64,000 nucleotides of DNA from NCBI GenBank assembly GCA_049977145.1, contig JBMFGW010000004.1:4791-68790 (forward strand). The letters run 5' to 3'. Numbering within the stretch: the stretch's first letter is position 1; the number at the start of each line of letters is the position of its first letter. The notes beneath the pieces are model-generated. The model was not told where the DNA came from, searched no databases, and saw only the letters and a list, made by a program, of their open reading frames with translations. The DNA comes from Phycisphaerae bacterium. Lineage in GTDB: Bacteria > Planctomycetota > Phycisphaerae > WQYP01. This document shows, piece by piece, positions 2,825 to 55,171 of this stretch. A program made the position numbers and the translations under genes.

Positions 2825-3553
2825 GTGGGACGGCGTTTCGGATGGTGCTTTATATGGATAAACAACGTTATGTTCGAGAGCGAAGGAAAACGTGAATGCG
2901 ATCGCGCGCAGGAATTTCGCAAGATTGTGGAGCCATTGGTACGTACTGGAGACTTAAACCAGGCGGCGGAATATATAGGGCATTGCTGGTGCGTGGGGGT
3001 AATCTGCGACTTTTTACGCCATTCCGACACGAAAGTGCGGAGCGTCGCCGCCATGGCTTTAGCGCTTATGGGGGACAAAACCGCTATTGCACCGCTGGTC
3101 GTGGCTTTGCATGATGTTGATCCACGGGTGAATGAACTGGCTGATCAGGCTTTATGGGCTATCTGGTTTCGTTGTGGCAATAAATGCGGTTGCGGTTATC
3201 TGAAATGTGGTACGCATCATTTGAAACACGGCAATATGGCAACGGCCATTGAAAAGTTTACTTTGGCGATTGCCGCCGATCCGGACTTCGCCGAAGCCTA
3301 CAATCAACGGGCCATCGCCCATTATCTTTCCGAGCAGTACGCCGAAGCTCTGGTGGATTGCCGTGATGCTTTGGCAAAAATGCCGCCGCACTTCGGGGCA
3401 ATGGCGGGAATGGGACATTGTCACGCCCAACTGGGCAATCTGTGCGCAGCGCAGCAATGTTACCGTCAAGCCTTGGCCATCAATCCTTGCATGGAGGGCA
3501 TTGCCGTAGCGTTGGCACAGATTCAGAAAATTATAAACAAACCGACCCTCTGA
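2825..3553 (+). CDS. HEAT-repeat (PBS-lyase type) plus TPR-repeat protein
   Basis: HEAT-like repeats (VRSVAAMALALMGDKTAIAPLVVALHDVDPRVNELADQALWAI) are followed by TPR-like repeats (AEAYNQRAIAHYLSEQYAEALVDCRDALA). The true start may be the ATG near 2870. Confidence 0.55.
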   Translation: MGRRFGWCFIWINNVMFESEGKRECDRAQEFRKIVEPLVRTGDLNQAAEYIGHCWCVGVICDFLRHSDTKVRSVAAMALALMGDKTAIAPLVVALHDVDPRVNELADQALWAIWFRCGNKCGCGYLKCGTHHLKHGNMATAIEKFTLAIAADPDFAEAYNQRAIAHYLSEQYAEALVDCRDALAKMPPHFGAMAGMGHCHAQLGNLCAAQQCYRQALAINPCMEGIAVALAQIQKIINKPTL

Positions 3554-3591
3554 TGGTTGCGGCGTATGGTGTGCTGATTTCCCCATGGTTC

Positions 3592-6297
3592 TTAGTCCGT
3601 GAGGTTGAATTCCTGCAACAGCAATTCAAATTGTCGGTGATATTCTTTACCGCCAATTTGCTTGCCATATAGCGCCACGAGTTGTTTGAGTGCGGCGCGG
3701 GTTTGACTTGCGTAGGCATTGGATTTCACGTTGCAGCGAATCAGATAGTAATACGCCTGCCAGTAAATTGCGGATCCCGGCTCCAACTGGGGAATCAGCC
3801 GCACATAGATGCTGTGGGCATGATCGAAGTTACCGGCGGCATATAAGGCCCGGGCGGCTCCGATGAAATTGGTCAAATCACCGGGACGCTGCTTTTCCAG
3901 TGCCTTGTACTCCTGCCATGCCACCTGCCCCTCCCCGGCGCGGATGAGTTCGGCGGCCCGAATTTGTTGGTAGGCATAAATGTCGTCCTGGTTTTTCCGC
4001 CCCGGCTGGCTTTGCAGCGACTGAATCAACTGCTGCAGCAGTGCCGCGGCACCGGCGGCCAGCCGCCGGGCTTTGCCTGGATCCGTATGCCGGATTTTGC
4101 GACTTTCCTGATCATACTGGCCGATCAGGCCCTTGATAACATCCGTGGATTTCTGAGTCGATTCGCCAGCGAACTTCCGCACCAGCGGCAGAATTTTATT
4201 ATTTTCTCCCGCCAATTGATACTGCCGAATGCGATAACGCAGAAGAATACCGCGTAATTTCGGGGAAAGCTGTTTTTCCAGCACGGTGAGCTTATCAAGA
4301 ATCTGGCCCGCCCGATATGGATTACGCAACGGATTGATCGCGGTGCCGGCTTCCAGCAGCAGAATGTTAACACGGTAACGCCTGGCTCTAGCCAAGGCGG
4401 CCGGAGCTATTGCCGCGGGCGGATGGTCCAAAAGGTGCAGATATTTGTCGGCGGTCTGCAGCAGTTGTCGGGCGGCCTGGTGCTGCTGCGTTTCTGGAGC
4501 CTTTTTCAGAGTCAAGGCGCTAAGTTGCTCAGCGCCAATACGCACCAACTGATATTGCGCATCGAGATAAAGTGGATCGGCGGCGGGTATTTCATTAAAC
4601 AATTTGATGGCCGGTTTATACTGTCCGGCGTTTTCCAATTGCAGCGCGTAGGGGAAGCGAATTTGCGGATCATGGAAAGTATGCCAATCCAAGCTGATGG
4701 CCGCAGTGGTCAACTTCGTAATGTCGGCGGATACCTGCCGCGACTCGTTAAGCTGCGCTAATTCCGACAGGGCCAGCGCCATAACGTGCCTGGCCCGTGG
4801 GTCCGTGGGGGACAGACGCACGAACGCAATGTTCATTTTGGCCGCCAAGTCCAATTGTCCCAACTGTGCGGCGGTGATAGCAGCGATAAGCGTGGTTTCC
4901 GACCGGATGGATGGGGGTAGCTCTTTGCGCGCCAGCAAACTCTGTGCAATGGCCAACGCTTGCCGTTGGCTGGTCGTGGCGGGATTCTGGGCCTCCAGCC
5001 ACGCCGCAGCGAGCACCTGCAACGGCTGAAGTGTGGCTGGATCAATTTTAGCGGGTAAATGTTGCGCTAAATGTGTGAAAATCAGTCTCTGATATTGTGG
5101 AGCCTGGCGGATGACGTTACTGACCATGGCGATTGCCGCCGCCTGGGCGCTGGCACGTTGGGCGGGATTTTTCAACGCGTTGGCCGACGCTTCCGCAATC
5201 CGAAACGCCAGCAATTGCTCCCCCATTTTGGCGCTGATGGAATTGGCGCCAACCTGCTTGGCGGTCCAGGTCATAAAGGATTTCAGTTTCGCCCGGGCTT
5301 GATCGTATCGGCCGCTGCGGAGTAAAGCGGTCACCTGTTGATAATAGGCATCATATTGCAACCAGACCGGGGCGTGCGATGAAGCCGCGGTAGTCAGGTC
5401 GTGGAGAGCTTTATTATATTGTCCGTTGTGCAGATAGGCTTTCCCGCGCAATAGCAGCGCCCGGTAATAAACGCCGCTATTTTGTACTTTGGCATAAGGA
5501 CTAATGCCGCTGATAGCGGAGCCGAGCAATGTTTGGCGCATCTTGTCGCCCGGAGGAAGGGCCAGTCCGGAAAAATAATCAGCATAAGCCAGATAATACG
5601 CGGTATCCCGCTGACCATTCATGGCGAGAGTGTATAGCTGTTCATCGGCATCCGTAAAGGTGCTGGCGTTGTTGAGATTCTTTATGACCTGAGAGTAATG
5701 TTTCTGTGCTGCTTGTAAAAGTCGGCGGGCCAGATTGGCGGCGGGCGCCAGCTCCCGGCGCAGTGCCGGCGTGCCGGACCAGAATTCAATCTCGTTGACG
5801 GTATTGGTGGTCAGGCTGGCTAATACAAACTGCGCTTGCATGGTGGACCATCCGGGGTCCACATTATTGTCGGCGGACTTGAGATAAATGTTGACATCAC
5901 GGATGAACCGTTCTTTCATTTGTTGTTGTTGGGCGGGGTGGTTTTTGAATTGATCCCACCGGCAGAAAATATCGGCGGCCCCAAACAAAGCTTTATCGGC
6001 GGGGGTGGTGGCCGCTTTTAAGGCGGCGGCGATCCGGGCGACGGCGTGCGTCTTTTCAAGTTGTGCGGCAAGTTGCGCGGGGCTGGCATGAGGTGGTAGA
6101 ACAACCGGTATGGTTGTTGCCGATGCGGCATGAATTATCGGCACGGCCATCCAGGCCACGACGCAGGCCATGATTGGACCCCAAAGCCAGCGATTCTTTC
6201 GTGCCATAATTTGTGGTCGGTAATCCGGCGAAATCGTCGCCGCAAAACTGGTGGAAGTCTTACTGAAATAATTTGGAATTCCCAGCATGGTGAGCAA
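3592..6297 (-). CDS. Large TPR-repeat protein (901 aa) with N-terminal signal/TM segment
   Basis: Long ORF with repeated Ala/Leu-rich helical TPR-like units throughout. It is last in the minus-strand cluster with exbB/exbD. Confidence 0.7.
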   Translation of the reverse strand: MLTMLGIPNYFSKTSTSFAATISPDYRPQIMARKNRWLWGPIMACVVAWMAVPIIHAASATTIPVVLPPHASPAQLAAQLEKTHAVARIAAALKAATTPADKALFGAADIFCRWDQFKNHPAQQQQMKERFIRDVNIYLKSADNNVDPGWSTMQAQFVLASLTTNTVNEIEFWSGTPALRRELAPAANLARRLLQAAQKHYSQVIKNLNNASTFTDADEQLYTLAMNGQRDTAYYLAYADYFSGLALPPGDKMRQTLLGSAISGISPYAKVQNSGVYYRALLLRGKAYLHNGQYNKALHDLTTAASSHAPVWLQYDAYYQQVTALLRSGRYDQARAKLKSFMTWTAKQVGANSISAKMGEQLLAFRIAEASANALKNPAQRASAQAAAIAMVSNVIRQAPQYQRLIFTHLAQHLPAKIDPATLQPLQVLAAAWLEAQNPATTSQRQALAIAQSLLARKELPPSIRSETTLIAAITAAQLGQLDLAAKMNIAFVRLSPTDPRARHVMALALSELAQLNESRQVSADITKLTTAAISLDWHTFHDPQIRFPYALQLENAGQYKPAIKLFNEIPAADPLYLDAQYQLVRIGAEQLSALTLKKAPETQQHQAARQLLQTADKYLHLLDHPPAAIAPAALARARRYRVNILLLEAGTAINPLRNPYRAGQILDKLTVLEKQLSPKLRGILLRYRIRQYQLAGENNKILPLVRKFAGESTQKSTDVIKGLIGQYDQESRKIRHTDPGKARRLAAGAAALLQQLIQSLQSQPGRKNQDDIYAYQQIRAAELIRAGEGQVAWQEYKALEKQRPGDLTNFIGAARALYAAGNFDHAHSIYVRLIPQLEPGSAIYWQAYYYLIRCNVKSNAYASQTRAALKQLVALYGKQIGGKEYHRQFELLLQEFNLTD

Positions 6298-41589: not shown

Positions 41590-42060
41590 CTAAAACAATC
41601 CCGCCGCAACGCCGCCGCACCCATAAAGCCGCGACCGCGGGTCGCGCCCCGTTTACCCCGTACACACCGCGTACCTTCGCATCGTGAAACATTGCCGGTA
41701 GTCCGTTACGGATTCGATCGGACAAATGCGTTAAACAAGAGCCGTTTTCGGATTAGCGCGGCCACCCGTTCGCGCGTTTTGGTCGTGGCGTCGCCGCACC
41801 CGTCAAATGTGAACAGCCCGGAGACATCGGCGTTGTGGAACCTTCCAATGTGCGCAATGGACCGCCGGTGGCCGTTGACGCCGAGCGTGGCAATTTTTCC
41901 GGGCCACGCAGCGGTGCGGGAGCTAATTACGTCCCCGTTTCACTTCGCACCCGCCCGCCGCCATCACCTTTTAGCCGCGGGCATTGTGCCGCGCGTCCCC
42001 GTTTATTCCATCCCTCCGCAGCCCTTGCGACGAGCGCATAATTTTCCCAGAAATCAACGG
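41590..42060. repeat. Degenerate copy 1 of a ~550-bp intercassette repeat
   Basis: It shares CATAAAGCCGCGACCgcgGGTCGCGCCCCGTTTA and CCTTTTAGCCGCG blocks with copies 2 and 3, and lies just 3' of vapBC. Confidence 0.5.
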
Positions 42061-42101: not shown

Positions 42102-42515
42102 TTATCTTCCAGCGGGACTAATGATGTCCAACCGTGGAAAATAGGTTCGGTAACGTCCCATGTCGCGCGTCATCAGTTTGAGTCCTTCAACCGCCGCATG
42201 CGCACCAATAAAAAAATCAGGTAATACCACTATCTTCTCACCGCCACGTCGTCGATATGACAAAAAGCATTTTGCCGCCAGAAAGGCCGCCTCATAAGGT
42301 ATGCCACGGCGTTCGAACCACTCCGGCGGAAGTGCTTCGTTGACATCCTCAATACGGGAAAATCGCACCGATACCTCGACGAAAATTACCGCATTGATGA
42401 CCAGCGTATGGCGTTCCGCCGCCTCGGCCAATGCCTCGCTGGACCATTGAAACCATTGGGAATCCTCGGTGAGAATATCGAGCAACACATTAGAATCCAC
42501 CATGATGCCGGGCAT
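42102..42515 (-). CDS. vapC: PIN-domain ribonuclease toxin VapC
   Basis: PIN acidic residues (MVDSNVLLDIL..., EVS). Confidence 0.85.
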   Translation of the reverse strand: MPGIMVDSNVLLDILTEDSQWFQWSSEALAEAAERHTLVINAVIFVEVSVRFSRIEDVNEALPPEWFERRGIPYEAAFLAAKCFLSYRRRGGEKIVVLPDFFIGAHAAVEGLKLMTRDMGRYRTYFPRLDIISPAGR

Positions 42516-42518
42516 GTG

Positions 42519-42740
42519 TCACATCCGTGTAAGTTTCATAATCTCATCGGTCGATAAGCCGGTGCCGGCGCGGCCACGCATCCGTGCAATCAAAGCGTTT
42601 CCTCGTCGGCCCTTGGAGATCTTGCGTAAAACAATCTCCCGGCCGCGAATGATAAATTCCACGTCCGTGTGTGGAAGAATTCCAGCGCGTTCGCGAATCG
42701 CCCGAGGAACTGTTACTTGGCCTTTCACTGTCACCTTCAT
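42519..42740 (-). CDS. vapB: AbrB/MazE/SpoVT-type antitoxin VapB
   Basis: MKVTVKGQVTVPRAIRERAGI swapped-hairpin motif. 73 aa, separated from vapC by 3 nt. Confidence 0.75.
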   Translation of the reverse strand: MKVTVKGQVTVPRAIRERAGILPHTDVEFIIRGREIVLRKISKGRRGNALIARMRGRAGTGLSTDEIMKLTRM

Positions 42741-43218
42741 GGTTGAAACTCCTATGCACCGGCCGCGCCACGCTTTCGATCATTAACAGCGGACGGCGTA
42801 TGGTAATACTCTTACAGGTATTATTACTACTCTGCAATGCAAACGCAAATAGAAAGCGGTGTGGGTGGCGGTCTATAATTTTATGGCTCTTCGGGCAAAC
42901 CAGTGGGTAAATTATGCTCGAAAAAATGATGTGAGCGGCAATTGGCCGTGTTTTTCTGTCGCTTCACAGAGTTTCAAAACTGTTGATTCTCATGGGATGG
43001 AAAAACGTAGCTACAAACGACGGTTATCGGATGCCTATCGATTCGCTGGTTTTCGCATGGCCCCCAAAGTCACCGGCATGTTTGGTGATCCCAAGGCGCG
43101 GTTGCTGCGTCTATCGCGGCGCTCAAAACACGCTTTGCGGCTGCTGTGGAAAGGCCCACAGCGGCTGGTATGACCATAAAACTCGACGGGTGCGTGATCT
43201 TTCGTGCGGAGACATGTG

Positions 43219-43770
43219 GAAGCCGAAATCTCCCGACACATCGGGACAGGCCCTTTGCCGCAGGAGCCGGCTAATCGGGGCTTCACCTCATTCCCGATCA
43301 ACCGCACCCCGGCGACAGCCGCCGCACCGGGGCCGCCCCAATGACCATTGAGCATTGAGCGCAGCGCCGCTGCGCCTCATAAAGCCGCGACCGTTGGTCG
43401 CGCCCCGTTTAGCGTCGTCGGCTGCCGACGGGCGCTCCCCATTCCCAAATCCCCCAGCCCCGCCGCGGCGGAACATCTGGGGGCGCTGGTGTCCCCACCC
43501 GCCGTAGTCCCAGTTCCAATGAGGCCGCAACGCCCATCCGCCAAACTCATCACCGGCAAACCTTATTCTGCCAACCTCGCTGGGCATGTATCTTAATATC
43601 TACGCGCACGGGCCAAACCGTTACCGCCGCACCGAACCGCAATATATCCTTTTAGCCGCGTGGCCTTGGCCCGCGCGTTCGCAGCGGAAATCCCACGCCC
43701 ATGCCAAAAAATATAGCCGCACCAAGGGCAATGCGTTATGCCTTGCATATATTCAATAAACGATGGATGT
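43219..43770. repeat. Copy 2 of ~550-bp structured intercassette repeat (ends in AAACGATGGATGTC)
   Basis: About 90% identical to 46600-47151. Internal hairpins are TCCCGAcacaTCGGGA, GCGACCgttGGTCGC, CGTCGGCtGCCGACG and CCCCCAG...CTGGGGG. Confidence 0.8.
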
Positions 43771-43852
43771 CCCCTTTTTCGCATCTTTCGCCTGTTGCAA
43801 TTATTACGGGAATTCGAGGAAGCCTCGAACAAAATCGGCATTTGCCAAGGAA

Positions 43853-44281
43853 TCACTCCGTTGAAGGCTTATCTTGGAGGTATTGCCACCCTCGCGCCTT
43901 TGCGTGCTGCTTCAACTTTTCCGCTTTCTTTGAAGCTTGGCTTTTGCCATCTTGCCCAAAATCGATAAGGGCGTGCGCCGGGTGTGTGGTTGGGTCTGGG
44001 TTTGGCGTTAGGCTGAGAGCGGTGCACTCTTTTACACTGACCGACATAACCCCGATAGAGAGGTAGCCTAACTCTCTGCTGTAATGCCTCCACGACTCCT
44101 CGGCGGTGATTTTATCGCCATCGTAAACCGAGAGCTTGTTTCTATCTTTCGGCGTTGGGCGGAAAACTTGCGATGTGATTTCCCCGTCTTGGCACCAGCT
44201 GGGATGCACCTGCCGGTGTAACAATGTTTCGTCAGTCATTCCGCCGCTCCACCCAGGGTCATTATTTGCGCCACCAACCAC
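43853..44281 (-). CDS. Hypothetical protein (142 aa) with basic Lys-rich C-tail; downstream gene of the unknown two-gene operon
   Basis: The ORF has an internal ATG (M15) forming an ATGA start/stop overlap with the upstream gene. No recognisable domain. Confidence 0.6.
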   Translation of the reverse strand: MVGGANNDPGWSGGMTDETLLHRQVHPSWCQDGEITSQVFRPTPKDRNKLSVYDGDKITAEESWRHYSRELGYLSIGVMSVSVKECTALSLTPNPDPTTHPAHALIDFGQDGKSQASKKAEKLKQHAKARGWQYLQDKPSTE

Positions 44282-45390
44282 TTCCAGGATTCAGGAAGAT
44301 TAAGGTTCAAGGCCTTGTTACTTTCTTCCACGTCCGTTGTAAGATCGACCTGAAACCAATCGGCATTGTGGGTTTTAATGTCGATTTCCAAGGATGCCGC
44401 GATTTGGCCTAGCTTCCATTCCGCCTGAATGCCACCCTCTACCGTGGGATATAAACGTGGTAAAATCGCCTCCTCAGAATAATATTTATTAAACGCACCT
44501 CTTAACCAAATGAGCCCATCGGAAGCGGGCGCTTTGCCTTCGCCTTCGAGCCATCCATCTTTCAGGTTGGCTATCTCTTCCAATCTCATTTCCACGTCAA
44601 GTGGATCGAGTTCATTAATATGTTCGATTGACTCAAAGCTCTCCAACCTCTTGCTGCGGTTAAACTTTCCAACGCCCTGCAGGAGCACGCGATACCCCTG
44701 CCTATATTTTGCGAACGCTTTCAAGACGGGATCGAGGTGCTGGGGGGCCAATGGGGCGAAGATTTTGTGACCATCCGCCTCCTGTAGTTGGAAGGTCATC
44801 TTGGCTTGGTCAGCCTCGCAGATCGCAGCACGAAGCGTTACATCTTCGGTATAGTCCTTTACAGTGTCGGAGGCTAAAAGTAAGGCTCGTCTGACGGTTA
44901 ATGTTAAACGAGTAACTGCTCCACCATCAGGGGACGTGAACTCGATGGCTTCATCTCCTCGGAGGCTGCGACCGATCCTGTCGAACCAGCCCAGTTTTTC
45001 TTTTGGGACATGGTTAAAGATTTCCTTGGGATTTGCTGCTGCTTTTATTGCGGCGAGAACTGAATCTCTTCCCTTCTCAAGCCAAGTTACAATGTCTGAC
45101 GGGAACAACATGTCGGTGGAAACCGAAAGCGCAATTACAGGGATTGCGCTTCCCGCCTCAACTGCGGTAAGCTTCAGCGAAATACCCTCGGTGAAATGAC
45201 GCGGTGATCGCTCGCGGTTTGGGTTGGCTTTCAAAAATTCATGTTTGGCCATTTCCAAGATCATGGCTTCTAGCGCGGCTAAGTCACCTAGGACTTCCAA
45301 TGGGATAGAATGTTCTTCAAACCTTGGCCCAACGAAACGGGGACGTAAAAATTCAGTTTCGTCCATCAACCTTACCTCGTAAGCCTGCAC
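44236..45390 (-). CDS. Hypothetical protein (384 aa); upstream gene of the unknown two-gene operon
   Basis: Long ORF of coding-like composition with no recognisable motif. It is translationally coupled to the 142-aa gene. Confidence 0.65.
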   Translation of the reverse strand: MQAYEVRLMDETEFLRPRFVGPRFEEHSIPLEVLGDLAALEAMILEMAKHEFLKANPNRERSPRHFTEGISLKLTAVEAGSAIPVIALSVSTDMLFPSDIVTWLEKGRDSVLAAIKAAANPKEIFNHVPKEKLGWFDRIGRSLRGDEAIEFTSPDGGAVTRLTLTVRRALLLASDTVKDYTEDVTLRAAICEADQAKMTFQLQEADGHKIFAPLAPQHLDPVLKAFAKYRQGYRVLLQGVGKFNRSKRLESFESIEHINELDPLDVEMRLEEIANLKDGWLEGEGKAPASDGLIWLRGAFNKYYSEEAILPRLYPTVEGGIQAEWKLGQIAASLEIDIKTHNADWFQVDLTTDVEESNKALNLNLPESWKWLVAQIMTLGGAAE

Positions 45391-45758
45391 AAATCATCAC
45401 AATCGTGGATACCGCACCTCGAAATTTAGGTTGTTCCCACTGGATACATATGCGATCCCCAGTTCGCTGTGATCGAAGCACAATAATGCTGATATTTTAC
45501 CCGCAGAACACTAAATGGCAACGTCCAGGCACTTCGCGCAGCCATGATTAGTCCCTCTTGCCGGATACCATCAACTTTCGCATCGCCGCATGGAATAGGT
45601 AAAATTCAGCGGGCGCACCACATGCACCGCCGTGGCGGAACTCGGTATCGCGACAACGCCCCCCAAACAACTGCACCAGAATGACAGAATTTTGATAACC
45701 GTCAAGACCTGCGCGGAATCCGGTGCGTCAGTGAAACAATCTGTGTCTTATTAACTGA

Positions 45759-45995
45759 ATGGAGTTCACCATGGAAATATCCGTTAAGGGGGAGTGGCGA
45801 CTCAAATCGCACACGGATGGCGAAGAGTATTCCGGGAAGACTGGAGCGGGCGTCAGCCTCAGCAAGGTTACCATTGATTCTGAATATACGTTCGTCTGCG
45901 AAGAAACAACCGAATTCGCGCTCGCCAGCGGGAAAGAGACCCAAAAGCTTACGCTCATGAGCCTAAGGGAAAATCGCCGATCGGTCATGGAATGA
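45759..45995 (+). CDS. Small acidic hypothetical protein (about 74-78 aa), divergent from the two-gene operon
   Basis: GGAG 7 nt upstream of an internal ATG (MEISVKGE...). Very low confidence. Confidence 0.25.
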   Translation: MEFTMEISVKGEWRLKSHTDGEEYSGKTGAGVSLSKVTIDSEYTFVCEETTEFALASGKETQKLTLMSLRENRRSVME

Positions 45996-46099
45996 GAAAA
46001 TGGATTGCCAGTTGGATGTTTGCTGTTAATCCGGTCGGTCAATTGTGGAAACGGTGGATGTCACATTTTCTATATCCCAAGAAATGCGTGTACTTAGAT

Positions 46100-46113
46100 A
46101 AACGATGGATGTC
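46100..46113. other. Cassette-junction motif AAACGATGGATGTC (site 2)
   Basis: Same core as 43757-43770, 47138-47151 and 49111-49123, all in the same orientation. Confidence 0.5.
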
Positions 46114-46233: not shown

Positions 46234-46485
46234 TTATTGTCGAGAGAAAAGCAATTCGTCCGCCGGAACCTCGAATGTAGCGGGACTTTCATCCGCGTTA
46301 CCAACAGGCCGCACGCGCACAAGCCGTCGGCCCAAAGAGCCTATGGCACCTCTATCTTCAACAACGACGACCGAAAGATCGCTGCGACCAAAGCGGATTT
46401 TAGCCCGGCGACCAACGGACGGCACCAAGCGGATTGACCGCCTCGGTTTATGAATTGGTAATTTCGCCATAAAGCATCCCTTCAT
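46234..46485 (-). CDS. Possible small ORF (83 aa) in the cassette remnant between junction site 2 and repeat copy 3
   Basis: ORF only. Competing overlapping ORFs sit in other frames. Confidence 0.15.
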   Translation of the reverse strand: MKGCFMAKLPIHKPRRSIRLVPSVGRRAKIRFGRSDLSVVVVEDRGAIGSLGRRLVRVRPVGNADESPATFEVPADELLFSRQ

Positions 46486-46599
46486 ATCAGAGCGTTAGAC
46501 ATTATAGCATTCGCTACCACCATCGACGGCAGATTGTCGCGCATGGCAAGCCAAGGACAACTCGCTTGCCCCAGCCATAGCCGCTCCCTGTTTAGGCAG

Positions 46600-47151
46600 G
46601 AAGCCGAAATCCCCCGACACATCGGGACAGGCCCTTTGCCGCAGGAGCCGGCTGGCCGGGGCTTCACCTCATTCCCGATCAACTGCTCGGCGGCGACAGC
46701 CGCCGCACCGGACCGTCCCATTGATCATTGTTCATTGAGCGCCGCGCCACCGTCCCTCATAAAGCCGCGACCGATGGTCGCGCCCCGTTTAGCGTCGTCG
46801 GCTGCCGACGGGCTCTCCCCTTCCCAAAATCCCCCAGCCCCGCCGCTGCGGACGATCTGGGGGCGCGGGTGTCCCCACCCGCCGTAGTCCCAGCTCCAAT
46901 GAGGCCGCAACCCCGATCCGCCGAACTGGCCACCGGCGAACCCTATTCTGCCAATATCGCTTGGCATGTATCTTAATATCTACGCGCACGGACTAAACTA
47001 TTACCGCCACACCGAACCACAATATATCCTTTTAGCCGCGTGGCCTTGGCCCGCGCGTTCGCAGCGGAAATCCTACGCCCATGCCAAAAAATATAGTCGC
47101 ACCAAGGGCAACGCGTTATGCCTTGCTCGCAGCTAATGGACGATGGATGTT
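46600..47151. repeat. Copy 3 of ~550-bp structured intercassette repeat (ends in GGACGATGGATGTT)
   Basis: About 90% identical to copy 2. Stem sequences are conserved while loops vary (GCGACC-gat-GGTCGC). It ends 20 nt from the AIPR stop. Confidence 0.8.
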
Positions 47152-47171: not shown

Positions 47172-48956
47172 TTAGTCTGCCGCCCACCGATCATCGAATT
47201 CGTCCGCGTCCATCCTTAGCGAGTCCCGCAGCTTCTGGCTCAGCTCACGGCCGCCGGGCATTGATGGAAGCATGTTAAAATATTGTCCGACTGCCTGCCG
47301 GATTCCTGCCAAACACGCCTTTGTTTTGATCCAGTTTTGTGGGCTGAATACGCGGTTGGCCAGCTGGGGCTCATTTGCGGCCGCCTCAAGTGCGCTGTTT
47401 AGGCACGTTCCGGCTGCGTCTACCACCTGACCAATAAGATTGGCCGCCTTTGCCCTCTCATACGCAACCACAGGGTTAGGAACGCCGTCGCCTCTAGAGT
47501 TTGCCTGGCAGAAGTACAGTGAGACAGCGTACAAGTGGTTATACGGGGCATAGGATCGCATTGCCAACAGCGACTCATTCAACCCAAGGGGATTGTCTTT
47601 CTTCCACCGCTTTTCAATCTCCTGCATCCAATGCGACAGAGCATAAGCGTTCTCGGGTGCATACTCCCGATTACGTTTGAAAAGTTGCTCGAAGTGCTTG
47701 TCGAAGAGCTTGTTTTCGCTATACGAGATGTTTGGTCGCTGTGAATGCCAAGCCATCATCCACTTCGCCAACTCCATCAGATCGACAACCTCCGTCCCAT
47801 CGCGATCTGCAGGTGGCTTCTCGCCCCTTTTGGTAATGAAGTATCCCATTGGATATTTCTGCTCGTACGACTTCTTCGTGGCGAGAACACGCCGGTCGTT
47901 GCTGCGCAAATCCCTTGGCTTGACACCGCTCTGGGAGTTGGTGGAGATGCTGATCCTGTCGCCGCGGTTCCGCTCCGGAATCTCATAAAAGCGGAACATC
48001 GCATAAGCACTGTCGAGTTCCTTGACTCGCTCGCTGCATGAAAGGATGGTGTTCAGCGACTGACAACCGTTGACGATGCTGAGGCCCTTTATCGTCAGCA
48101 TGCCGTCGTTAATATCGAACTTACTGCAGATTGCGGTGACACCGTTGTGGAGGAAGAAGAAGTCATCTGCCCGATCACTATAAATTGTGTCCTTGATGCC
48201 CTTATTCACACGATTGTTCAAGCCCAACGACTGGCGGACATTCTTTTGAAAGAGCGTCCCATCCTTGATGCCCGGAATGGCGATACAGTCTTTCAACGGG
48301 ATCGCGGCGACGATACATTTCGTTCCGCCGATTTCCATTGCCATATACTTGTCAGATTCCAGCGTGACCTTATGGCTGATGAGCGGGTTCTCGCGATCCA
48401 GCGAAATATCGTAACGACGCTTCAGTTCCTCCGGGTCAACAACATGTATCTCCGCCGGAAAATCCTCTGCTTCAGCGATATTTTCCTGAAACTGCGCAAG
48501 ATCCTCCTTGGCGCCAGTGGTCAAGAACCCGGTGGCGATGAGCTCGAAGGAAACGTTATATTCATCTTCAATCGCAGTGGCAACTTCGGCGAGCCGGCGC
48601 TTAAGCCTTTGATTCCCAGTAGCCTGCAATTTGACAATATCTTTGAGCTTAATCCATGATGACAGCACCTCTCGCAAAGGTGCCGCGTCTATAGTCGGTT
48701 GGCCCACAAATTTGCCCTGGATAACGTAAACCGTTGCGTTGCCATCGTCCACAACGATTGCATCAATCTGCTGGTCGTCGGGGCCATCTGTGACATCCTC
48801 TCGGGTTTCAATCATGTCGCGGCCATGAATGTTATGCACATACCAAGCGACGAAACGCTGCCCGTCATTGACGTATTTTTGTTGAAAATACTCACCTTGA
48901 ATTTCTTTTTTAATCTGGTCGTAAATCGATGGCACGGGATCGGGGGACAAAGTCAT
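47172..48956 (-). CDS. AIPR-family abortive infection phage resistance protein
   Basis: 594 aa with the AIPR-like core (FFFLHNGVTAICSKFDINDG) and a long C-terminal helical region. The segment is visibly AT-richer than its neighbours. Confidence 0.75.
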   Translation of the reverse strand: MTLSPDPVPSIYDQIKKEIQGEYFQQKYVNDGQRFVAWYVHNIHGRDMIETREDVTDGPDDQQIDAIVVDDGNATVYVIQGKFVGQPTIDAAPLREVLSSWIKLKDIVKLQATGNQRLKRRLAEVATAIEDEYNVSFELIATGFLTTGAKEDLAQFQENIAEAEDFPAEIHVVDPEELKRRYDISLDRENPLISHKVTLESDKYMAMEIGGTKCIVAAIPLKDCIAIPGIKDGTLFQKNVRQSLGLNNRVNKGIKDTIYSDRADDFFFLHNGVTAICSKFDINDGMLTIKGLSIVNGCQSLNTILSCSERVKELDSAYAMFRFYEIPERNRGDRISISTNSQSGVKPRDLRSNDRRVLATKKSYEQKYPMGYFITKRGEKPPADRDGTEVVDLMELAKWMMAWHSQRPNISYSENKLFDKHFEQLFKRNREYAPENAYALSHWMQEIEKRWKKDNPLGLNESLLAMRSYAPYNHLYAVSLYFCQANSRGDGVPNPVVAYERAKAANLIGQVVDAAGTCLNSALEAAANEPQLANRVFSPQNWIKTKACLAGIRQAVGQYFNMLPSMPGGRELSQKLRDSLRMDADEFDDRWAAD

Positions 48957-49166: not shown

Positions 49167-49967
49167 CTACCATGGCATCGCATGATGGTCCAGCGCGCCG
49201 TCGGCACGCAAGAACGCTGCGTGAGCGACGAAGATAGTCGCATGGATTCCTTCGCCACTCTCGTACATGAAGCCCACCAGTTGCGGGATATTCCGGGCCT
49301 CGTCCACGACGTACACGGCGCTGCCACTCATACCGCCCAGCGAGGTCAGCTCATCGAGATCAGGATTGCACTTAACGGCAACCCGCACCATATCCCCATC
49401 CGCGAGAACGATATGCCGGGCCGAAACAGAGGTCACGAAATCGCAGACCGGAGTCGCCCGCGCGTCCAGTCCACCGGCGCTGGACGCGCGGTGCGCTCCC
49501 GGGAATCCTAACAAGACCGCAACCTGACCCTCCATGGCGCGGATCGGGGGCCAAACCTCGGCCCTGAAATAGGATTTCCCACTACCCGTGATGCGTTCCG
49601 GATCCGGCAGCCTAAGCACCGCTAAATCCAGTCGCGTTCCACCGTTTTCAACAAGATGGGCGTCCGATACGATCACTGGCGGGACGCCGTTCCCGGCCCC
49701 GACGGCCAGAACGGCGTGCGGATTGGCTTCCCTTAATTCATTGAAGCGGTCGATCACATGGCCGCATGTGACCAGAAGTTTCGCGGTGCCGGTGTCGATG
49801 AAGGAGGCGGTGCCATTGCAGATCACGTCGCTCGGCGGTGCTCCGCTGCTCGGCAAGAGCAGCAGCATGCCGACGTGCGGCAACAGCCGAGGGGTGATTT
49901 TTTCCAGTCGATCCTTAAGTTCCTTTTCATCCATCTGAAATGCTCCAGCACCACCGAACCTCGACAA
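49167..49967 (-). CDS. Cytoplasmic trypsin-like (S1/chymotrypsin-fold) serine protease
   Basis: His-Asp-Ser in canonical order (LLVTCGHVI, LDLAVLRL, LGGMSGSAVY). No signal peptide. The start is probably the second ATG (MDEKELK, 49934) with GGAG upstream. It lies about 55-90 nt 3' of hsdS on the same strand. Confidence 0.7.
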   Translation of the reverse strand: MSRFGGAGAFQMDEKELKDRLEKITPRLLPHVGMLLLLPSSGAPPSDVICNGTASFIDTGTAKLLVTCGHVIDRFNELREANPHAVLAVGAGNGVPPVIVSDAHLVENGGTRLDLAVLRLPDPERITGSGKSYFRAEVWPPIRAMEGQVAVLLGFPGAHRASSAGGLDARATPVCDFVTSVSARHIVLADGDMVRVAVKCNPDLDELTSLGGMSGSAVYVVDEARNIPQLVGFMYESGEGIHATIFVAHAAFLRADGALDHHAMPW

Positions 49968-50021: not shown

Positions 50022-51224
50022 TCACAACTCCCCATTAAACGCCCGGTGCAACATGGACTGAAACAGGGCATCAAGCCGGGCGCGGCTGGTGGTTTGAGCG
50101 GATTCGATCTGGCGGATTTCGGTCACCCGTTGGGCAAATTTCTTTTGTAATGGCAGTGGCGGGAAGGGAATCGCCAACTCGCTCAAGAATTTTAGGTTTA
50201 TATTTTTTTGGGCCATTTGTGGTGCAGCTTCCTCGAGATGATTTTCCATGGTAACGAGACAAGCACGAACGTAATCGGCAGCAACGCCATCGCTCGGGAT
50301 AAACCCGACCATACTGTCTGGAAAGCAGGCCGGAAATGTCAGGATGGCTGTTTTGCCAATGTTCGCGGCAATGGTGACAACGAGCGTTCCAGCAGGCCAC
50401 ATTCGGCTTTGGGCGAAACCCTTTTCCGAATAGGTCTGGGTATAGGTGGTGATCTCGCCGTTGGCACTGGCAACATCGCCCGTCTGGATAAATGGATATT
50501 TGCCCCCATAGAGGCTGGGATCTCCTCGCGGGCGATTTCTGGAGCGTCCGCGATCAAGCTTACCTATTTCAGGGAGCATTTTGACTTTCCAACCTTCGGG
50601 ATTTGTGACAGGATCACCAAACATCTCCTGAAAAAGCGCGGGGATGAGGTCGGCGGTGCGGCGGTCGGCTTGGGCGCGGAGTTTTCGCAACCCGTCGGCC
50701 TCGTCCAGCAGCTTCACGATCCGCTCCTGCTCCGCCAGCGGCGGGAGGGTAATGGTGGTCGCTCTCAGGTGAGATGGGCCGAAGTTTTGTTGAGCGGATC
50801 CGGTTACGAGCCGGGTGATCTGCCCACGAAATTCGACCGAATCGAGCCAGTGCCGCAGCCAGCCCAGGCTTGAGACCCCCTCTTTCGGTTTGAACCGGAT
50901 CGTGCTGGTGTTGAGGCAGAGAGGTAGGTGTTGCGTCTCGACAAACGCGCCGCGAGTCCGCAATAAACCATCCTTGTCAAACGAGATTCCCGAACTGGCT
51001 ATTACCATGTCGCCCGCATCTATGAGAAAGTGAGAATACTTTTCCTGAACTTCCTCATGGGCAAGGTAGCGTTCCGTGCTCGACAAGTCGAGATTCCCCT
51101 CACTCGTAATATTTGCAACGTTGAGGAGCTTGACGCCTGATCCGCGGAACTGCCATTTACGAACACCCGGTCCCTCTTGAAACCAATAGGCATCCCCTAG
51201 CGGTTTTGTTGGCCAGCGCTTCAT
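50022..51224 (-). CDS. hsdS: Type I restriction-modification specificity subunit HsdS
   Basis: Two target-recognition domains separated by a conserved central repeat (PPLAEQERIVKLLDEA) and a terminal repeat (PLPLQKKFAQRVTEI). ATGA overlap with hsdM. Confidence 0.9.
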   Translation of the reverse strand: MKRWPTKPLGDAYWFQEGPGVRKWQFRGSGVKLLNVANITSEGNLDLSSTERYLAHEEVQEKYSHFLIDAGDMVIASSGISFDKDGLLRTRGAFVETQHLPLCLNTSTIRFKPKEGVSSLGWLRHWLDSVEFRGQITRLVTGSAQQNFGPSHLRATTITLPPLAEQERIVKLLDEADGLRKLRAQADRRTADLIPALFQEMFGDPVTNPEGWKVKMLPEIGKLDRGRSRNRPRGDPSLYGGKYPFIQTGDVASANGEITTYTQTYSEKGFAQSRMWPAGTLVVTIAANIGKTAILTFPACFPDSMVGFIPSDGVAADYVRACLVTMENHLEEAAPQMAQKNINLKFLSELAIPFPPLPLQKKFAQRVTEIRQIESAQTTSRARLDALFQSMLHRAFNGEL

Positions 51225-52738
51225 TCGCTCCCCCCACCTTTCGCCAACAACGCTTCGCCGCGTCGAACAATTTCACCCTCCAACTTAATCACCTCGCGGA
51301 GAATGTCCGAAGGCGCATCATGATTCACGGCTTCGCTGGTCACAGCCCTGTATCGGCCTGCGGCCAGGCTCCAATCGTTTTCCTTGATTTTCTCAATCGC
51401 CACGCGATAGCTTTTGGCACTTTCTTCGCGTGTTGGCCATTTGGCCAAAATATCGGGAATATCGTTGGCTTCAATGGGGCTGCGTTTGTCGTCCAGACTT
51501 AGGCCATCGGCCCCCAAATCGTAAAACCAGACGGATTTTGTCGGCGTACCCTTCTGAAATATCAACGCTGCCGTAGCCACGCCCGCATAAGGCTTGAAAA
51601 CCCCGCTGGGCAAATTGATGATGGCTTGCAGATCGCACTCGGTTAATAGCGCTTCGCGTAGTTTTACCGCAGCGTTTGTTGAGCCAAATAACACGCCATT
51701 GGGCACAATAACACCTGCCCGCCCGCCCGGTGCCAGATGATCCACAAACCATTTTAGAAATAGCAGTTCGGTGGCCCGGGTGTTTAACTTATAATTCAGA
51801 TCCGCGAGAATGCTTTCATCCTGCACCTTGCCGGAGAATGGCGGATTGGCCAAAATAACTTCAAAGCGTTCCCCCGGATACACCCCGCCAAATCCCGTTG
51901 TCAACGGGTTGAAATGCTCAACGCGCGCCCGTTCCAACTGGTGCAGATATAAATTAAGAATCGCGATTTTGACCATATTGGCGTCGTTATCAAAGCCGGT
52001 AAAGGCCTGTGATCCCAGAAACTTCCATTGGGCCGATTTGAGCAGCGATCCATAAATGTGCCCCCGCTTCAGGTCGGCCGGTTTGGTGTTTTGCCGCAGA
52101 ATGTGATTAAGCGCGGAGATAAGAAAGCCCGCCGTGCCGCACGCGGGGTCACAAATCCGCTGGCCCGGTTGCGGGTTCACCAATTCAACCATCAGGTCAA
52201 TAATGTGGCGCGGGGTGCGGAATTGGCCATTAGTGCCGGACATGGAAAGCTTGGATAGCAGATATTCGTACATATCGCCTTTAAGATCGTGGCCATCATG
52301 CGCGGCAAGGTCCATTTCCTCAATGCCCTGAATGATGGCGCGCAGCGTGGGGCGGTCATAAATTTTCAGTGTGGCGCGGCCAAACAGGAGCTTGCCGGTG
52401 TCGCTTAGGTTCGGCAGCTCATGCAAACTTTCAATGGCGTCACGGGCGGCATTGAACAGTTCATCCCCAGCCAGAGTCACAAAGTTACCCCAGGCAAAGC
52501 GTGCCCATTTACCGGAGAAAATGCGGGTATATTTTTTATCAAGCCCCGCAAGGGCCTCATCCTTTTCAGTCAGCAGGCGTAAAAACAGCAGATAAGAAAT
52601 CTGCTCAATGGAATCCATCGGGTTATTTACCCCGCCGGAATACAGGATGTCCATAAGCTGGTCCACCCGCTGGCGCAAGCCGGAGGAAAAGAAATTGGAA
52701 CCATTGGTTTTTATTGGTGGATCCGTCGCCATATTCAT
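51221..52738 (-). CDS. hsdM: Type I restriction-modification DNA methyltransferase HsdM
   Basis: HsdM N-terminal domain, an AdoMet-binding region and the N6-adenine MTase motif IV (NPPF: ILANPPFSGK). Confidence 0.9.
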   Translation of the reverse strand: MNMATDPPIKTNGSNFFSSGLRQRVDQLMDILYSGGVNNPMDSIEQISYLLFLRLLTEKDEALAGLDKKYTRIFSGKWARFAWGNFVTLAGDELFNAARDAIESLHELPNLSDTGKLLFGRATLKIYDRPTLRAIIQGIEEMDLAAHDGHDLKGDMYEYLLSKLSMSGTNGQFRTPRHIIDLMVELVNPQPGQRICDPACGTAGFLISALNHILRQNTKPADLKRGHIYGSLLKSAQWKFLGSQAFTGFDNDANMVKIAILNLYLHQLERARVEHFNPLTTGFGGVYPGERFEVILANPPFSGKVQDESILADLNYKLNTRATELLFLKWFVDHLAPGGRAGVIVPNGVLFGSTNAAVKLREALLTECDLQAIINLPSGVFKPYAGVATAALIFQKGTPTKSVWFYDLGADGLSLDDKRSPIEANDIPDILAKWPTREESAKSYRVAIEKIKENDWSLAAGRYRAVTSEAVNHDAPSDILREVIKLEGEIVRRGEALLAKGGGSE

Positions 52739-52747
52739 TGCACCTTT

Positions 52748-55171
52748 TTATGCACTGGCCAGCAGGGATTGCCGGACCAGGCCGGACTGGCGCAGGGCTT
52801 CAAATACTTCGCCACGCGCCTCAAACCGAGATAATGCCGTGACGCCGCCCAGCGGATTAAACTGTATCTCGCTGAACATCGTCATATCCCCCGCCATGAA
52901 TTTTTTAAGCGAGTTACCATCCTCGGCAATCAGTTCGGCGGTGGCGTTAAGCCACTTCTGCTCATTGTAACGCAGATTAAACCGCGCGGCGATGGAGTCC
53001 ACCGTATCGCAAATAATCGCGTCACGCGTCGGCAACGGCTTACGCCCGACGGCATTGTAAACAAAGGCCGGAGTGCTTGCCGGCACACCATAAGAGATGA
53101 TGAGCTTGTCCGGGGAGTAATACATTTCCGGGCGGTGATAAAACCGTTCGTTAACCAGCGTTTCAACCGTGTCATCATCTTCCGCATCAACAGCGGTCTG
53201 CATTTCCGGAGTCCGGGCGACAAACTCTCTGATGTCTCGCTCATAACCGCCACGAAACGTCATCAGGTCCACCTTCTGCCCGTCGGGCCCGACAACGGTT
53301 ATTTCCCGGCTCACCAGCTTGTCCACACCCTCCCAGGTCGGAATGTCCCGCGGTGGCGGCGCGCTCAAATCAGGCGGCGTACCATCCGCGGTGGCAACTT
53401 CGCCATCACCATCACCTTCACGCAGAATCACCCCTTGCGGCAAATGGGGCGGGTAGGTGGTGGGTTCCGATTGCTGTTTGGGGCGTGGCAGCTTGAGCGG
53501 AACAGTATAGTCGTATTTTTCCTCAAAATATTCGGCTACTGCGCAGAAATCCAGTATCAGGAAATATTTCTTTTCGTGTTCCGTGTTGCCGATCTTAAAG
53601 GTAAACAGTCGCGTGCCGCGTCCCTTAATCTGGATGTATTCGGTTGGGGAAAAAATGGGCCGCATCAGGCCAATATTCAGCAAGTCCTGGCAGTTGTAGC
53701 CGGTGGAAAGCATATCGACGGAAACGGCGATGCGTTCACTACGTTTCCCGTCGCGAAATTCCTTGGCTATTTCCGCGGCACCTTCAATCCGGCTGGTGAT
53801 GGTGACGGCAATACCAGGCTCAAGTAAGTTGAAAATTTTCGTCAGCTCGGTCGCATGAGTTTGGTTCACCGCAAACACCAGAGATTTCCCGATGTTGTTC
53901 GCCGGGTCCCGCTTCGCTTCAGCCAAAAACTCCTCGCAGATAACGCGGTTGCGGGCGGGAGTGAAGATTTTCCGTTCAAGGTCCTTAATCTTGAAATTCT
54001 CTTCCTGCTCGTTAATGACCACCGCCCAGCCGGAGTCGGCCAGCGCCTGCGTGGTGATGTCCGAGCGCAGGTCAATAATTTTGGGCAGGCAAAGGAACGG
54101 ACCCTCCGGGTCTTTCACCGCGTCAACAATGTCATAACGGAAAGTCGGAAAGCCGGGCTTGCAGCCAAAATAATTGTAGGTGTCCCGGAACAAGCGCGCT
54201 TCAAGCGCCTTGGGATTTTCCTGCTCAAGCTGTTCCATATCCACATTTTTCAAATAGGCCTTGGGCGTGGCGGTCAGACCGACGCGGGTAGCCTGGAAAA
54301 ATTGCACCACCTCCCGCGCGTCGCCGTAAATTGAGCGGTGAGCTTCATCATTAACCACCAGATCAAAGTGAAATGGCGTGAATTCCTCCCGGTAGCGGCG
54401 GTCCACCATCAGCGATTGCAGCGTGGCGACCACCACCGATGAGCCAAGCAATTCGCCGGATTTCCGGCGCGCGGTTTTATAGAGAACCGGCTTGTACTCG
54501 GCAAGCATGACATTGAATTCTTCCAGCGTCTGCTTGGCCAGTTCAATGCGGTCCACAATAAACAAAACCCGCTCGGCGTTGCGCGTGGCAAGAAAGCGCC
54601 GGATCAACGCGGCGCACAGCAGCGTCTTGCCCGTGCCGGTCGCCATTTCCAGCAGGAATCCGCGGCGGGCCTGATCATCAAACTGCCGCGATACGGTGTC
54701 CAATGCCGCAATCTGGTAGCGCCGCAGTTCGCGGTCGGGACGAAATCTTTTCAGATAATCGGGCGTGATGATCTCGCTCATCAACGCGCGCGGCGGTTGC
54801 AGATTTTTCAGGCGCAACCGTTCGAGGTCTTCAAGAGATGGCAGCCGCTCAATACGGTAGGCATCCCGATCCTTGCGGGTGTAATTCCAGAACCAGTGCT
54901 CCCGGCCATTGGAGAGAATCACGAACGGGGCTTTGCGGTTTTCGGCGTAGCCACGGGCCTGCTCCTTGGCGTTGTATGGATCAACATCTTCGCGTTTGGC
55001 TTCCAAAACACAAAGCGGGCCGCGCTGGCCGAAAAGGACATAATCCGCCCGCCCGGTAGCATCGCTTAGCTCAAAGCGGACCTGATGGGCATCCAGCAAG
55101 TTCCAACCGCTGTATTCCAGCGCCTTGTCAATGAGAACCCGCGAAAATGCCTCATTTTCCTGATTTTGCAT
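52748..55171 (-). CDS. hsdR: Type I restriction enzyme R subunit HsdR
   Basis: N-terminal nuclease domain (ADYVLFGQ...VLEAKRE), SF2 helicase motifs (GTGKT, DEAH as VVNDEAHRS) and a C-terminal domain. 807 aa. Confidence 0.9.
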   Translation of the reverse strand: MQNQENEAFSRVLIDKALEYSGWNLLDAHQVRFELSDATGRADYVLFGQRGPLCVLEAKREDVDPYNAKEQARGYAENRKAPFVILSNGREHWFWNYTRKDRDAYRIERLPSLEDLERLRLKNLQPPRALMSEIITPDYLKRFRPDRELRRYQIAALDTVSRQFDDQARRGFLLEMATGTGKTLLCAALIRRFLATRNAERVLFIVDRIELAKQTLEEFNVMLAEYKPVLYKTARRKSGELLGSSVVVATLQSLMVDRRYREEFTPFHFDLVVNDEAHRSIYGDAREVVQFFQATRVGLTATPKAYLKNVDMEQLEQENPKALEARLFRDTYNYFGCKPGFPTFRYDIVDAVKDPEGPFLCLPKIIDLRSDITTQALADSGWAVVINEQEENFKIKDLERKIFTPARNRVICEEFLAEAKRDPANNIGKSLVFAVNQTHATELTKIFNLLEPGIAVTITSRIEGAAEIAKEFRDGKRSERIAVSVDMLSTGYNCQDLLNIGLMRPIFSPTEYIQIKGRGTRLFTFKIGNTEHEKKYFLILDFCAVAEYFEEKYDYTVPLKLPRPKQQSEPTTYPPHLPQGVILREGDGDGEVATADGTPPDLSAPPPRDIPTWEGVDKLVSREITVVGPDGQKVDLMTFRGGYERDIREFVARTPEMQTAVDAEDDDTVETLVNERFYHRPEMYYSPDKLIISYGVPASTPAFVYNAVGRKPLPTRDAIICDTVDSIAARFNLRYNEQKWLNATAELIAEDGNSLKKFMAGDMTMFSEIQFNPLGGVTALSRFEARGEVFEALRQSGLVRQSLLASA

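Follow-up and report, generated by a model that had tools for sequence, protein, structure and literature searches.

In a 64,000-nucleotide stretch of a metagenome-assembled genome (MAG) of a Phycisphaerae bacterium (Planctomycetota; assembly GCA_049977145.1, contig JBMFGW010000004.1, positions 4,791 to 68,790; hereafter the window), a defence island contains two overlapping minus-strand genes, here called A and B, that constitute a strictly paired, translationally coupled operon. As judged by profile matches, the pair is a member of PDC-M32, a catalogued candidate phage defence family. The predicted fold of B places this small protein in the ADP-ribosyltransferase (ART) superfamily, and its partner A is modelled as a three-part protein with a central OB fold. 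With moderate confidence we consider the pair to be a toxin-antitoxin-like abortive-infection module in which an NAD+-using toxin, B, is held by A.

The gene pair and its family

The sequence of A matches PDC-M32A (PDLC04574) with an E-value of 1.8e-138 over residues 9–379 of a 384-aa open reading frame (ORF), covering positions 1–371 of the 376 in the profile, and B matches PDC-M32B (PDLC04579) with an E-value of 9.3e-53 over residues 15–135 of a 142-aa ORF, covering positions 1–121 of 123. As in the family, B follows A directly and in the same orientation (A>>B). PDC stands for "phage defence candidate": genes nested in BREX, DISARM and Type I restriction-modification (R-M) loci were collected by Payne, Hughes, Fineran and Jackson (2024, bioRxiv 10.1101/2024.01.29.577857), and 145 candidates found by such 'guilt-by-embedding' were curated and added to PADLOC. 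In supplementary table 8 of that work the family appears as CAS_00128, FAM_01821>>FAM_00608, with the number 98 and the remark "Assign as candidate PDC-M32"; among the candidates of these authors only the Hma-embedded ones were tested. One other paper mentions PDC-M32, as a PADLOC match in a Sinorhizobium prophage, and M32 is not among the eight candidates tested in a cold-seep study. In the searchable literature we found no published function, fold or test of PDC-M32.

An earlier reading of this DNA, made from the sequence alone (the sequence-only reading), had taken the pair for an undescribed system. This claim has to be abandoned, both proteins being full-length members of PDC-M32A and PDC-M32B in PADLOC-DB v2. 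The accompanying statement that neither protein can be assigned to a known family is right for sequence motifs and wrong at the level of the fold, where B belongs with the ARTs and A has its OB domain. Neither A nor B has a match in Pfam or NCBIfam, and scanning every member of the alignments separately gave no consistent match; for B, the window protein has no match in these libraries at E ≤ 1 and none was consistent across 48 family members. Searches of PDB chains with single sequences, a 48-sequence profile and a 122-sequence profile yielded chance-level matches only. No housekeeping family was matched by either protein. The B profile retrieved 1,264 clusters at 50% identity (E ≤ 1e-3). The 150 matches listed are almost all stand-alone proteins of about 125 aa, with a few longer ones, and among them no informative fusion was identified.

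Both ORFs, if called mechanically, begin with GTG (384 aa at 44236–45390 and 142 aa at 43853–44281). The true starts are internal ATG codons (Table 1), because three lines of evidence agree: in the family alignments the homologues, of about 375 aa for A and 126 aa for B, share the same Met start; the PADLOC profile matches begin at residues 9 and 15 of the respective ORFs; and the 128-aa form of B is 100% identical over its 128 residues to the deposited protein P0001, which the annotation of a Phycisphaerae bacterium MAG lists as hypothetical. The stop codon of A and the start codon of B overlap in an ATGA junction. The sequence-only reading had recognised the two overlapping ORFs, this junction and the translational coupling that it implies; only the position that it gave, near 44237–44240, is off by about one base (44239–44236). 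An overlap of the (A/G/T)TGA type is retained in 64 of the 73 evaluable homologous loci, so it is not due to chance. The bases preceding it are mostly GG(A/T/G)G, located where the conserved Gly-Gly at the C-terminus of A is encoded, and this stretch may double as a Shine-Dalgarno sequence for B. A GAGG sequence stands 8 nt upstream of the A start. A and B share a single transcript, with coupled translation.

The linkage between the two genes is very tight. Genomic loci were collected by a degenerate-pattern scan with the A alignment in one genome per GTDB species, and the best 80 of 161 loci were analysed. They span Planctomycetota, Latescibacterota, Chlorobiaceae, Gamma-, Alpha- and Deltaproteobacteria, Acidobacteriota, Verrucomicrobiota, Spirochaetia, Chloroflexota and others. 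In 76 of these loci A is followed immediately by B in the same orientation, and all 12 IMG/VR viral contigs with a B gene have A just ahead of it. Plasmids carry A in 4 of 72,556 records. Two of these four divergent matches were examined (Limnohabitans and Rhodococcus): A is 25–27% identical and is followed by an overlapping small gene, which hhalign equates with B at 98.2% and 99.8% probability, respectively. The adjacent, strictly paired arrangement typical of Type II toxin-antitoxin systems is therefore present in the genomic, viral and plasmid (2/2) loci alike. None of the GenBank phages carries A. When three neighbours on each side were clustered in the 80 loci, no third gene proved to be conserved; the clusters were limited to hsdM, hsdS, hsdR and occasional defence genes. 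In many phyla, on plasmids and in proviruses, A and B are inherited together.

The mobility of this unit can be followed in one case close to the window copy. An ENA metagenome contig (L083, positions 1335–2501 and 2868–4223) carries a 97%-identical A in a different context. Its DNA is homologous to the window only from window position 45537 on, 171 nt ahead of the A start, and upstream of this point it has another gene, a PDDEXK_1 (PD-(D/E)XK) nuclease gene. The presence of nearly the same A with the same leader in another context indicates that the cassette moves as a unit with its leader and that the relocation was recent. This comparison puts the 5' end of the mobile A-B cassette at about 45537.

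Four of the 80 loci lack B. In two of these, both of Latescibacterota, a small related ORF replaces B after A (L013, 11131–11379; L022, 11119–11577), and the one in L022 contains a DUF433 domain (E 1.6e-13). These loci may represent a variant system, with another partner for the A-type protein. In three loci of the Chromatiaceae-type purple sulfur bacteria a convergent 999-aa ORF is found just downstream of the pair (L062, 3103–6102; L069, 11091–14090; L071, 11254–14253); in L062 it matches Tubulin_2 (tubulin-like, E 1.4e-70). B is missing or truncated in L069 and L071.

The association with Type I R-M that originally defined the candidate was independently reproduced in our set. Type I R-M genes occur within 10 kb of the pair in 24 of the 80 loci, and in at least 12 of the 80 the nested order hsdM>A>B>hsdS(>hsdR) is seen on one strand. 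Of 75 loci, 9 have HsdM directly upstream of the pair and 11 have HsdS directly downstream; as a rough control, the same HMMs applied to 120 unrelated metagenome loci found HsdM in 2 and HsdS in none. The pair is thus often inserted inside Type I R-M operons, and the enrichment of its homologues near defence genes is borne out, notably for this type of system. Other neighbours include AbiEii-type AAA_21 ATPases, GmrSD, RhuM, a reverse transcriptase and a restriction endonuclease, and on the Limnohabitans plasmid the pair is surrounded by RelE/ParE and VapBC modules. We found no family-level difference between the window pair and PDC-M32; the window copy itself stands about 5 kb from an R-M operon and is not embedded in it. 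A single immediate downstream neighbour out of 75 is an ADP-ribosylglycohydrolase (PF03747, E 6.5e-57), a finding that is consistent with an ADP-ribosylation function for B.

Predicted folds of the two proteins

The AF2 model of B is confident (pLDDT 93) and finds almost exclusively ART-fold toxins as its structural neighbours, Tse2, Tpt1, HopF2, DarT, TreX/TreTu and RES among them. The best score, 7.4, is obtained with Tse2 (100 residues aligned), followed by the RNA 2'-phosphotransferase Tpt1/KptA (7.2 and 6.0), AvrPphF ORF2 (6.2), DarT (5.2 and 5.1), the Rhs toxins TreX and TreTu (5.1 and 4.9), the RES toxins (5.0) and OspC3 (4.9); lower scores are given by NarE, pertussis toxin, LT, Scabin, SidE, CARDS, diphtheria toxin, Tne2 and ParT. 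The modelled protein has the split beta-sheet of the ART fold, and at the fold level B is accordingly placed in the ADP-ribosyltransferase superfamily.

Residue conservation was analysed in 132 representatives of B clustered at 50% identity. The most conserved positions are F26 (99%), S37 in strand 2 (98%), R9 in strand 1 (97%), G63 (96%), H89 at the start of strand 5 (95%) and E71 after strand 3 (87% Glu and 8% Asp). In the model, R9 and S37 are compatible with an ART of the R-S-E class. For the third catalytic residue there would be two candidates, H89 at the canonical strand-5 site and E71. C72 is conserved at 86%; a Cys-His catalytic dyad involving this residue was considered and rejected, as it is replaced by Val, Ala or Phe in about 14% of the representatives and in the plasmid homologues. 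The last 33 residues of B have a pI of 9.8, in agreement with the basic tail described by the sequence-only reading, and residues 99–116 are modelled as a helix.

The model of A (pLDDT 89.7) consists of three parts. The N-terminal domain (residues ~1–165) is built of a beta-hairpin, a long helix, a second hairpin and a helical bundle; the central domain (~171–252) is a classic five-stranded OB barrel with an inter-strand helix; and the C-terminal alpha/beta domain (~258–376) combines helices with a five-stranded antiparallel sheet. The most conserved motifs of the family, DGWLEGxGxAP and LYPTxEGGIQAEW, are in the C-terminal domain. The protein is acidic, with a family median pI of 4.9 (5.9 for the OB domain and 4.4 for the C-terminal domain), which is a mild argument against a classical nucleic-acid-binding OB fold and in favour of protein binding. 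The model shows no macro, ARH, HTH or nuclease fold, and no enzyme fold was detected in A. A profile search with the N-terminal 100 residues of A returned family fragments only, with no new architecture among them. The one link to anything outside the family comes from the N-terminal ~90 residues, which have weak PADLOC matches to PDC-M63B (E 3.4e-4 and 3.3e-3), a hint from sequence that this domain may be common to another embedded candidate, PDC-M63 (CAS_00189, FAM_00167>>FAM_00523).

Proposed mechanism and competing explanations

By its predicted folds, the PDC-M32 family would belong to a known kind of system, an ART toxin plus a protein partner. In the mechanism that we favour, B would use NAD+ to ADP-ribosylate an essential macromolecule, or would destroy NAD+, with an active site likely formed by R9, S37 and E71 and/or H89. 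In uninfected cells A would bind and occlude B, and the coupled translation would keep A available whenever B is made. Phage infection would then remove or inactivate A, for example through degradation, titration or the shut-off of host synthesis, and the freed B would arrest the infected cell. Most of the structural neighbours of B are toxins that a cognate protein keeps in check by binding (Tsi2, DarG, TriX, TriTu, Xre, ParS or Tni2). Since the neighbours are controlled by binders and A has no fold capable of removing ADP-ribose, occlusion of B by binding seems more likely than enzymatic reversal. The toxin-antitoxin or anti-phage role suggested by the sequence-only reading is plausible in the light of the coupled operon, its position in a defence island and the linked homologues.

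Several points weigh against this interpretation. The family is a prediction, and no experiment on PDC-M32 is to be found in the searchable literature. In the model, the position of the canonical strand-5 catalytic Glu appears to be held by His89, and Glu71 is located after strand 3. B as a whole is near-neutral (median pI 6.4) and not strongly basic. No structural analogue exists for either of the domains that flank the OB fold of A, and an unseen activity of A is therefore conceivable. Finally, to our knowledge no substrate has been identified for Tse2, the closest structural neighbour of B.

The first alternative concerns the chemistry of the toxin. B may be an NAD+-degrading enzyme, an NADase or NAD+ phosphorylase like RES/MbcT or Tne2, that kills by NAD+ depletion. 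We regard this as unlikely, though less so than the other alternatives: the higher-scoring neighbours of B are transferases or transferase-like proteins (Tpt1, HopF2/AvrPphF, DarT), and no RES or other NADase Pfam profile was matched. Compared with the RES-domain ART-fold toxins of the RES-Xre, ParT-ParS and MbcT-MbcA systems, B has no RES Pfam match and its residue order is R...S...E/H and not R-E-S, and A lacks the Xre-type HTH; the likeness to this family is at the fold level only, and the pair is not a member of it.

A second possibility is that the pair is an ordinary addiction module, stabilising islands, plasmids and R-M operons by post-segregational killing and having no role in phage defence. 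The coupled two-gene architecture, the plasmid copy among RelE/ParE and VapBC modules, the proximity of VapBC in the window and the movement of the pair between contexts all speak for this explanation. We nevertheless give it rather little credence in view of the strong enrichment of the pair inside or beside Type I R-M and near Abi-type genes and of its rarity on plasmids. The addiction and defence roles are not mutually exclusive.

The nested loci raise the question of a third explanation, in which the pair is a restriction guard. The anticodon nuclease PrrC, encoded within the Type I R-M operon EcoprrI, is the classic precedent and is almost exclusively embedded in such operons. By analogy, the A-B pair would be kept silent by contact with the Type I R-M complex, or would sense its integrity, and would fire when an anti-restriction protein of a phage disables the enzyme. 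The single orientation of the nested loci, the frequency of HsdM and HsdS as immediate neighbours and the R-M operon some 5 kb away on the same strand in the window are in favour of this explanation, and the placement of an effector between hsd genes is a true likeness to PrrC. However, about 70% of the loci, as well as the plasmid and viral copies and the window copy, lie outside R-M operons; the pair must therefore be capable of functioning without one, and most copies are probably autonomous. PDC-M32 also differs from PrrC in having two genes and an ART fold in B in place of an ABC-ATPase-type anticodon nuclease. As a general explanation of the family, guarding thus appears to us less probable still than pure addiction, and PrrC-like guarding may apply to the embedded copies. 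PrrC is regarded as the archetype of an embedded system (Payne et al. 2024, bioRxiv 10.1101/2024.01.29.577857).

That the pair is not a toxin system at all, with B acting as a Tpt1/KptA-like RNA 2'-phosphotransferase or nucleic-acid end-modifying enzyme and A as its OB-fold partner in RNA repair or modification, is very improbable, given that B is half the size of Tpt1 and has no second lobe (about 87 residues align to chains of ~180–206 residues), that both the OB domain and the whole of A are acidic, that the distribution is patchy, mobile and within defence islands and not with RNA-repair genes, and that housekeeping families gave no match.

The toxin-antitoxin-like interpretation may also be carried further. 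In this extended form B would found a minimal ART clade not recognised before (~125 aa, R-S-E/H, more than 1,200 clusters at 50% identity) and upon infection modify nucleic acid or a translation factor. A would represent a new type of OB-fold sensor-antitoxin, two of its domains being novel, and in hsd operons it would monitor whether the Type I complex is intact, as a PrrC-like back-up against anti-restriction proteins. Taken as a whole, this proposal is speculative, and we find it about as doubtful as the addiction explanation.

Among the systems to which the pair may be compared, DarT-DarG combines an ADP-ribosyltransferase toxin acting on single-stranded DNA with a macrodomain antitoxin. 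B has no sequence relationship to DarT and is ~80 residues shorter, and in PDC-M32 the partner comes first and the toxin second. A DarG-like, enzymatic antitoxin role for A was rejected, as neither a macrodomain nor an ARH or other ADP-ribose-removing fold was detected; enzymatic reversal is hence unlikely and the pair does not belong to DarTG. Tse2-Tsi2 of Pseudomonas aeruginosa consists of a Type VI secretion system (T6SS) effector and its immunity protein. In the loci examined B has no secretion context and is not linked to a T6SS, and the 376-aa, three-domain A is unrelated to the small Tsi2. CmdTAC is an anti-phage system with an mRNA ADP-ribosyltransferase effector (PMC11618068). It has three components including a SecB-like chaperone, in contrast to A-B with no conserved third gene, and no sequence relationship between the two systems was detected.

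What is already known, then, is the candidate itself, present in a public defence database, and the established theme of ART-based toxin-antitoxin defence; what would be new to the field is the assignment of B to the ART fold and the unusual architecture of its partner. PDC-M32 is widespread, occurring in many phyla, plasmids and proviruses, and had no fold, function or test on record. The fold assignments turn an anonymous candidate into an NAD+-dependent toxin hypothesis with named residues (R9, S37, E71 and H89). If confirmed, this would add a very small ART clade and a new antitoxin architecture to ADP-ribosylation-based immunity, and PDC-M32 would join PrrC as a second model of an effector nested in a Type I R-M operon.

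The island and the flanks of the cassette

All the genes of the island are on the minus strand in the order hsdR-hsdM-hsdS, trypsin-like ORF, AbiU/AIPR, repeat, ~1.2 kb of other sequence, A-B, junction motif with repeat, and VapBC (Table 1). The VapBC, AIPR and Type I R-M neighbours named by the sequence-only reading are all present, and so are the two copies of a ~550-bp repeat bracketing the pair and the junction motif 3' of it. Between the pair and hsdS lie the peptidase-like ORF, AbiU/AIPR and the repeat, so the PrrC-like nesting between hsd genes does not occur in the window. The G+C content of the A-B segment is 0.49–0.51, lower than that of the flanks (0.56–0.60). Housekeeping genes start at about 41.5 kb in the window.

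Table 1. Positions of the gene pair, its signals and the surrounding features, numbered along the window
Feature	Position	Strand	Remarks
Gene A (PDC-M32A)	44236–45366	minus	376 aa, MDETEF...; acidic, three domains; proposed antitoxin/sensor
Gene B (PDC-M32B)	43853–44239	minus	128 aa, MTDETLL...; ART-fold protein (predicted), proposed toxin
ATGA junction, A stop/B start overlap	44236–44239	minus	B ATG 44239–44237, A TGA 44238–44236; read from the sequence
GGAG, Shine-Dalgarno-like, for B	44247–44250	minus	within the 3' end of A, 7 nt before the B ATG
Conserved 5' leader of A	45367–45537	minus	shared with ENA contig L083 and Logan contig L084 from 45537 on
Promoter-like TTGCCA-16-TAAAAT	45494–45521	minus	upstream of A; consensus scan 10/12, weak evidence
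Terminator-like hairpin with T-run, weak	43835–43848	minus	just after the B stop; 5-bp stem, TTTTGTT tail
Junction motif ACATCCATCGTT	43759–43770	minus	83 nt 3' of B, where the downstream repeat copy starts
Flanking repeat, downstream copy	43218–43770		blastn, 89% identity over 553 bp to 46599–47150
Flanking repeat, upstream copy	46599–47150		~1.2 kb of other sequence between repeat and A start
PIN/MazE-type VapBC	42102–42740	minus	beyond the downstream repeat copy
AIPR protein, PADLOC call AbiU	47172–48956	minus	next to the upstream repeat copy
266-aa ORF between hsdS and AbiU/AIPR	49167–49967	minus	borderline Trypsin_2, E 9.7e-6, 26.8 bits against a cutoff of 27.6
Complete Type I hsdR/M/S	50022–55171	minus	Type I R-M
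78-aa ORF	45759–45995	plus	between the upstream repeat copy and the cassette boundary at 45537
83-aa ORF	46234–46485	minus	between the upstream repeat copy and 45537; two ACATCCATCGTT copies follow

The promoter-like element falls inside the 171-nt upstream stretch that is common to a 95%-identical copy on another contig; promoter-like sites in the region are no more numerous than expected by chance in a consensus scan, and the same is true of terminator-like sites. The junction motif ACATCCATCGTT (with at most one mismatch) has four copies in the window, all on the minus strand, against 0.36 expected by chance. Besides the copy beyond B, they are at 46050–46061, 46101–46112 and 47139–47150. 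Each stands just 3' of a gene or ORF block, namely B, the 83-aa ORF (twice) and AIPR, and two of them are at the start of the 553-bp repeat. This arrangement suggests that the motif may be a cassette-end or recombination site.

The 553-bp repeat holds a palindromic core of ~34 nt, CATAAAGCCGCGACC-NNN-GGTCGCGCCCCGTTTA, with copies at 43378–43411 and 46758–46791. A third, isolated copy of the core is found downstream of VapC (41622–41655), and a fourth beside the 97%-identical A on L083. A relaxed form of the core, ATAAAGCCGCRACCNNNGGTCGCGCCCC, occurs in at least 120 metagenome stretches. We considered the whole repeat as a widespread element and rejected this idea, because only the hairpin core of ~40–50 nt recurs in metagenomes. 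The core thus resembles a REP-like hairpin of this lineage, the 553-bp unit being local. An explanation of the flanks by structured RNA was likewise discarded: Rfam gave only a sub-threshold match elsewhere, to the DUF3800-VII sRNA at 49822–49903 on the plus strand (24.5 bits against a gathering threshold of 36.2, E 0.35), which is probably due to chance.

Of the smaller ORFs in the island, the 266-aa trypsin-like one has no PADLOC match and may be a partner of the AIPR/AbiU gene. The 78-aa and 83-aa ORFs match no Pfam or PADLOC family; the latter, being followed by two junction motifs, may be a separate mini-cassette.

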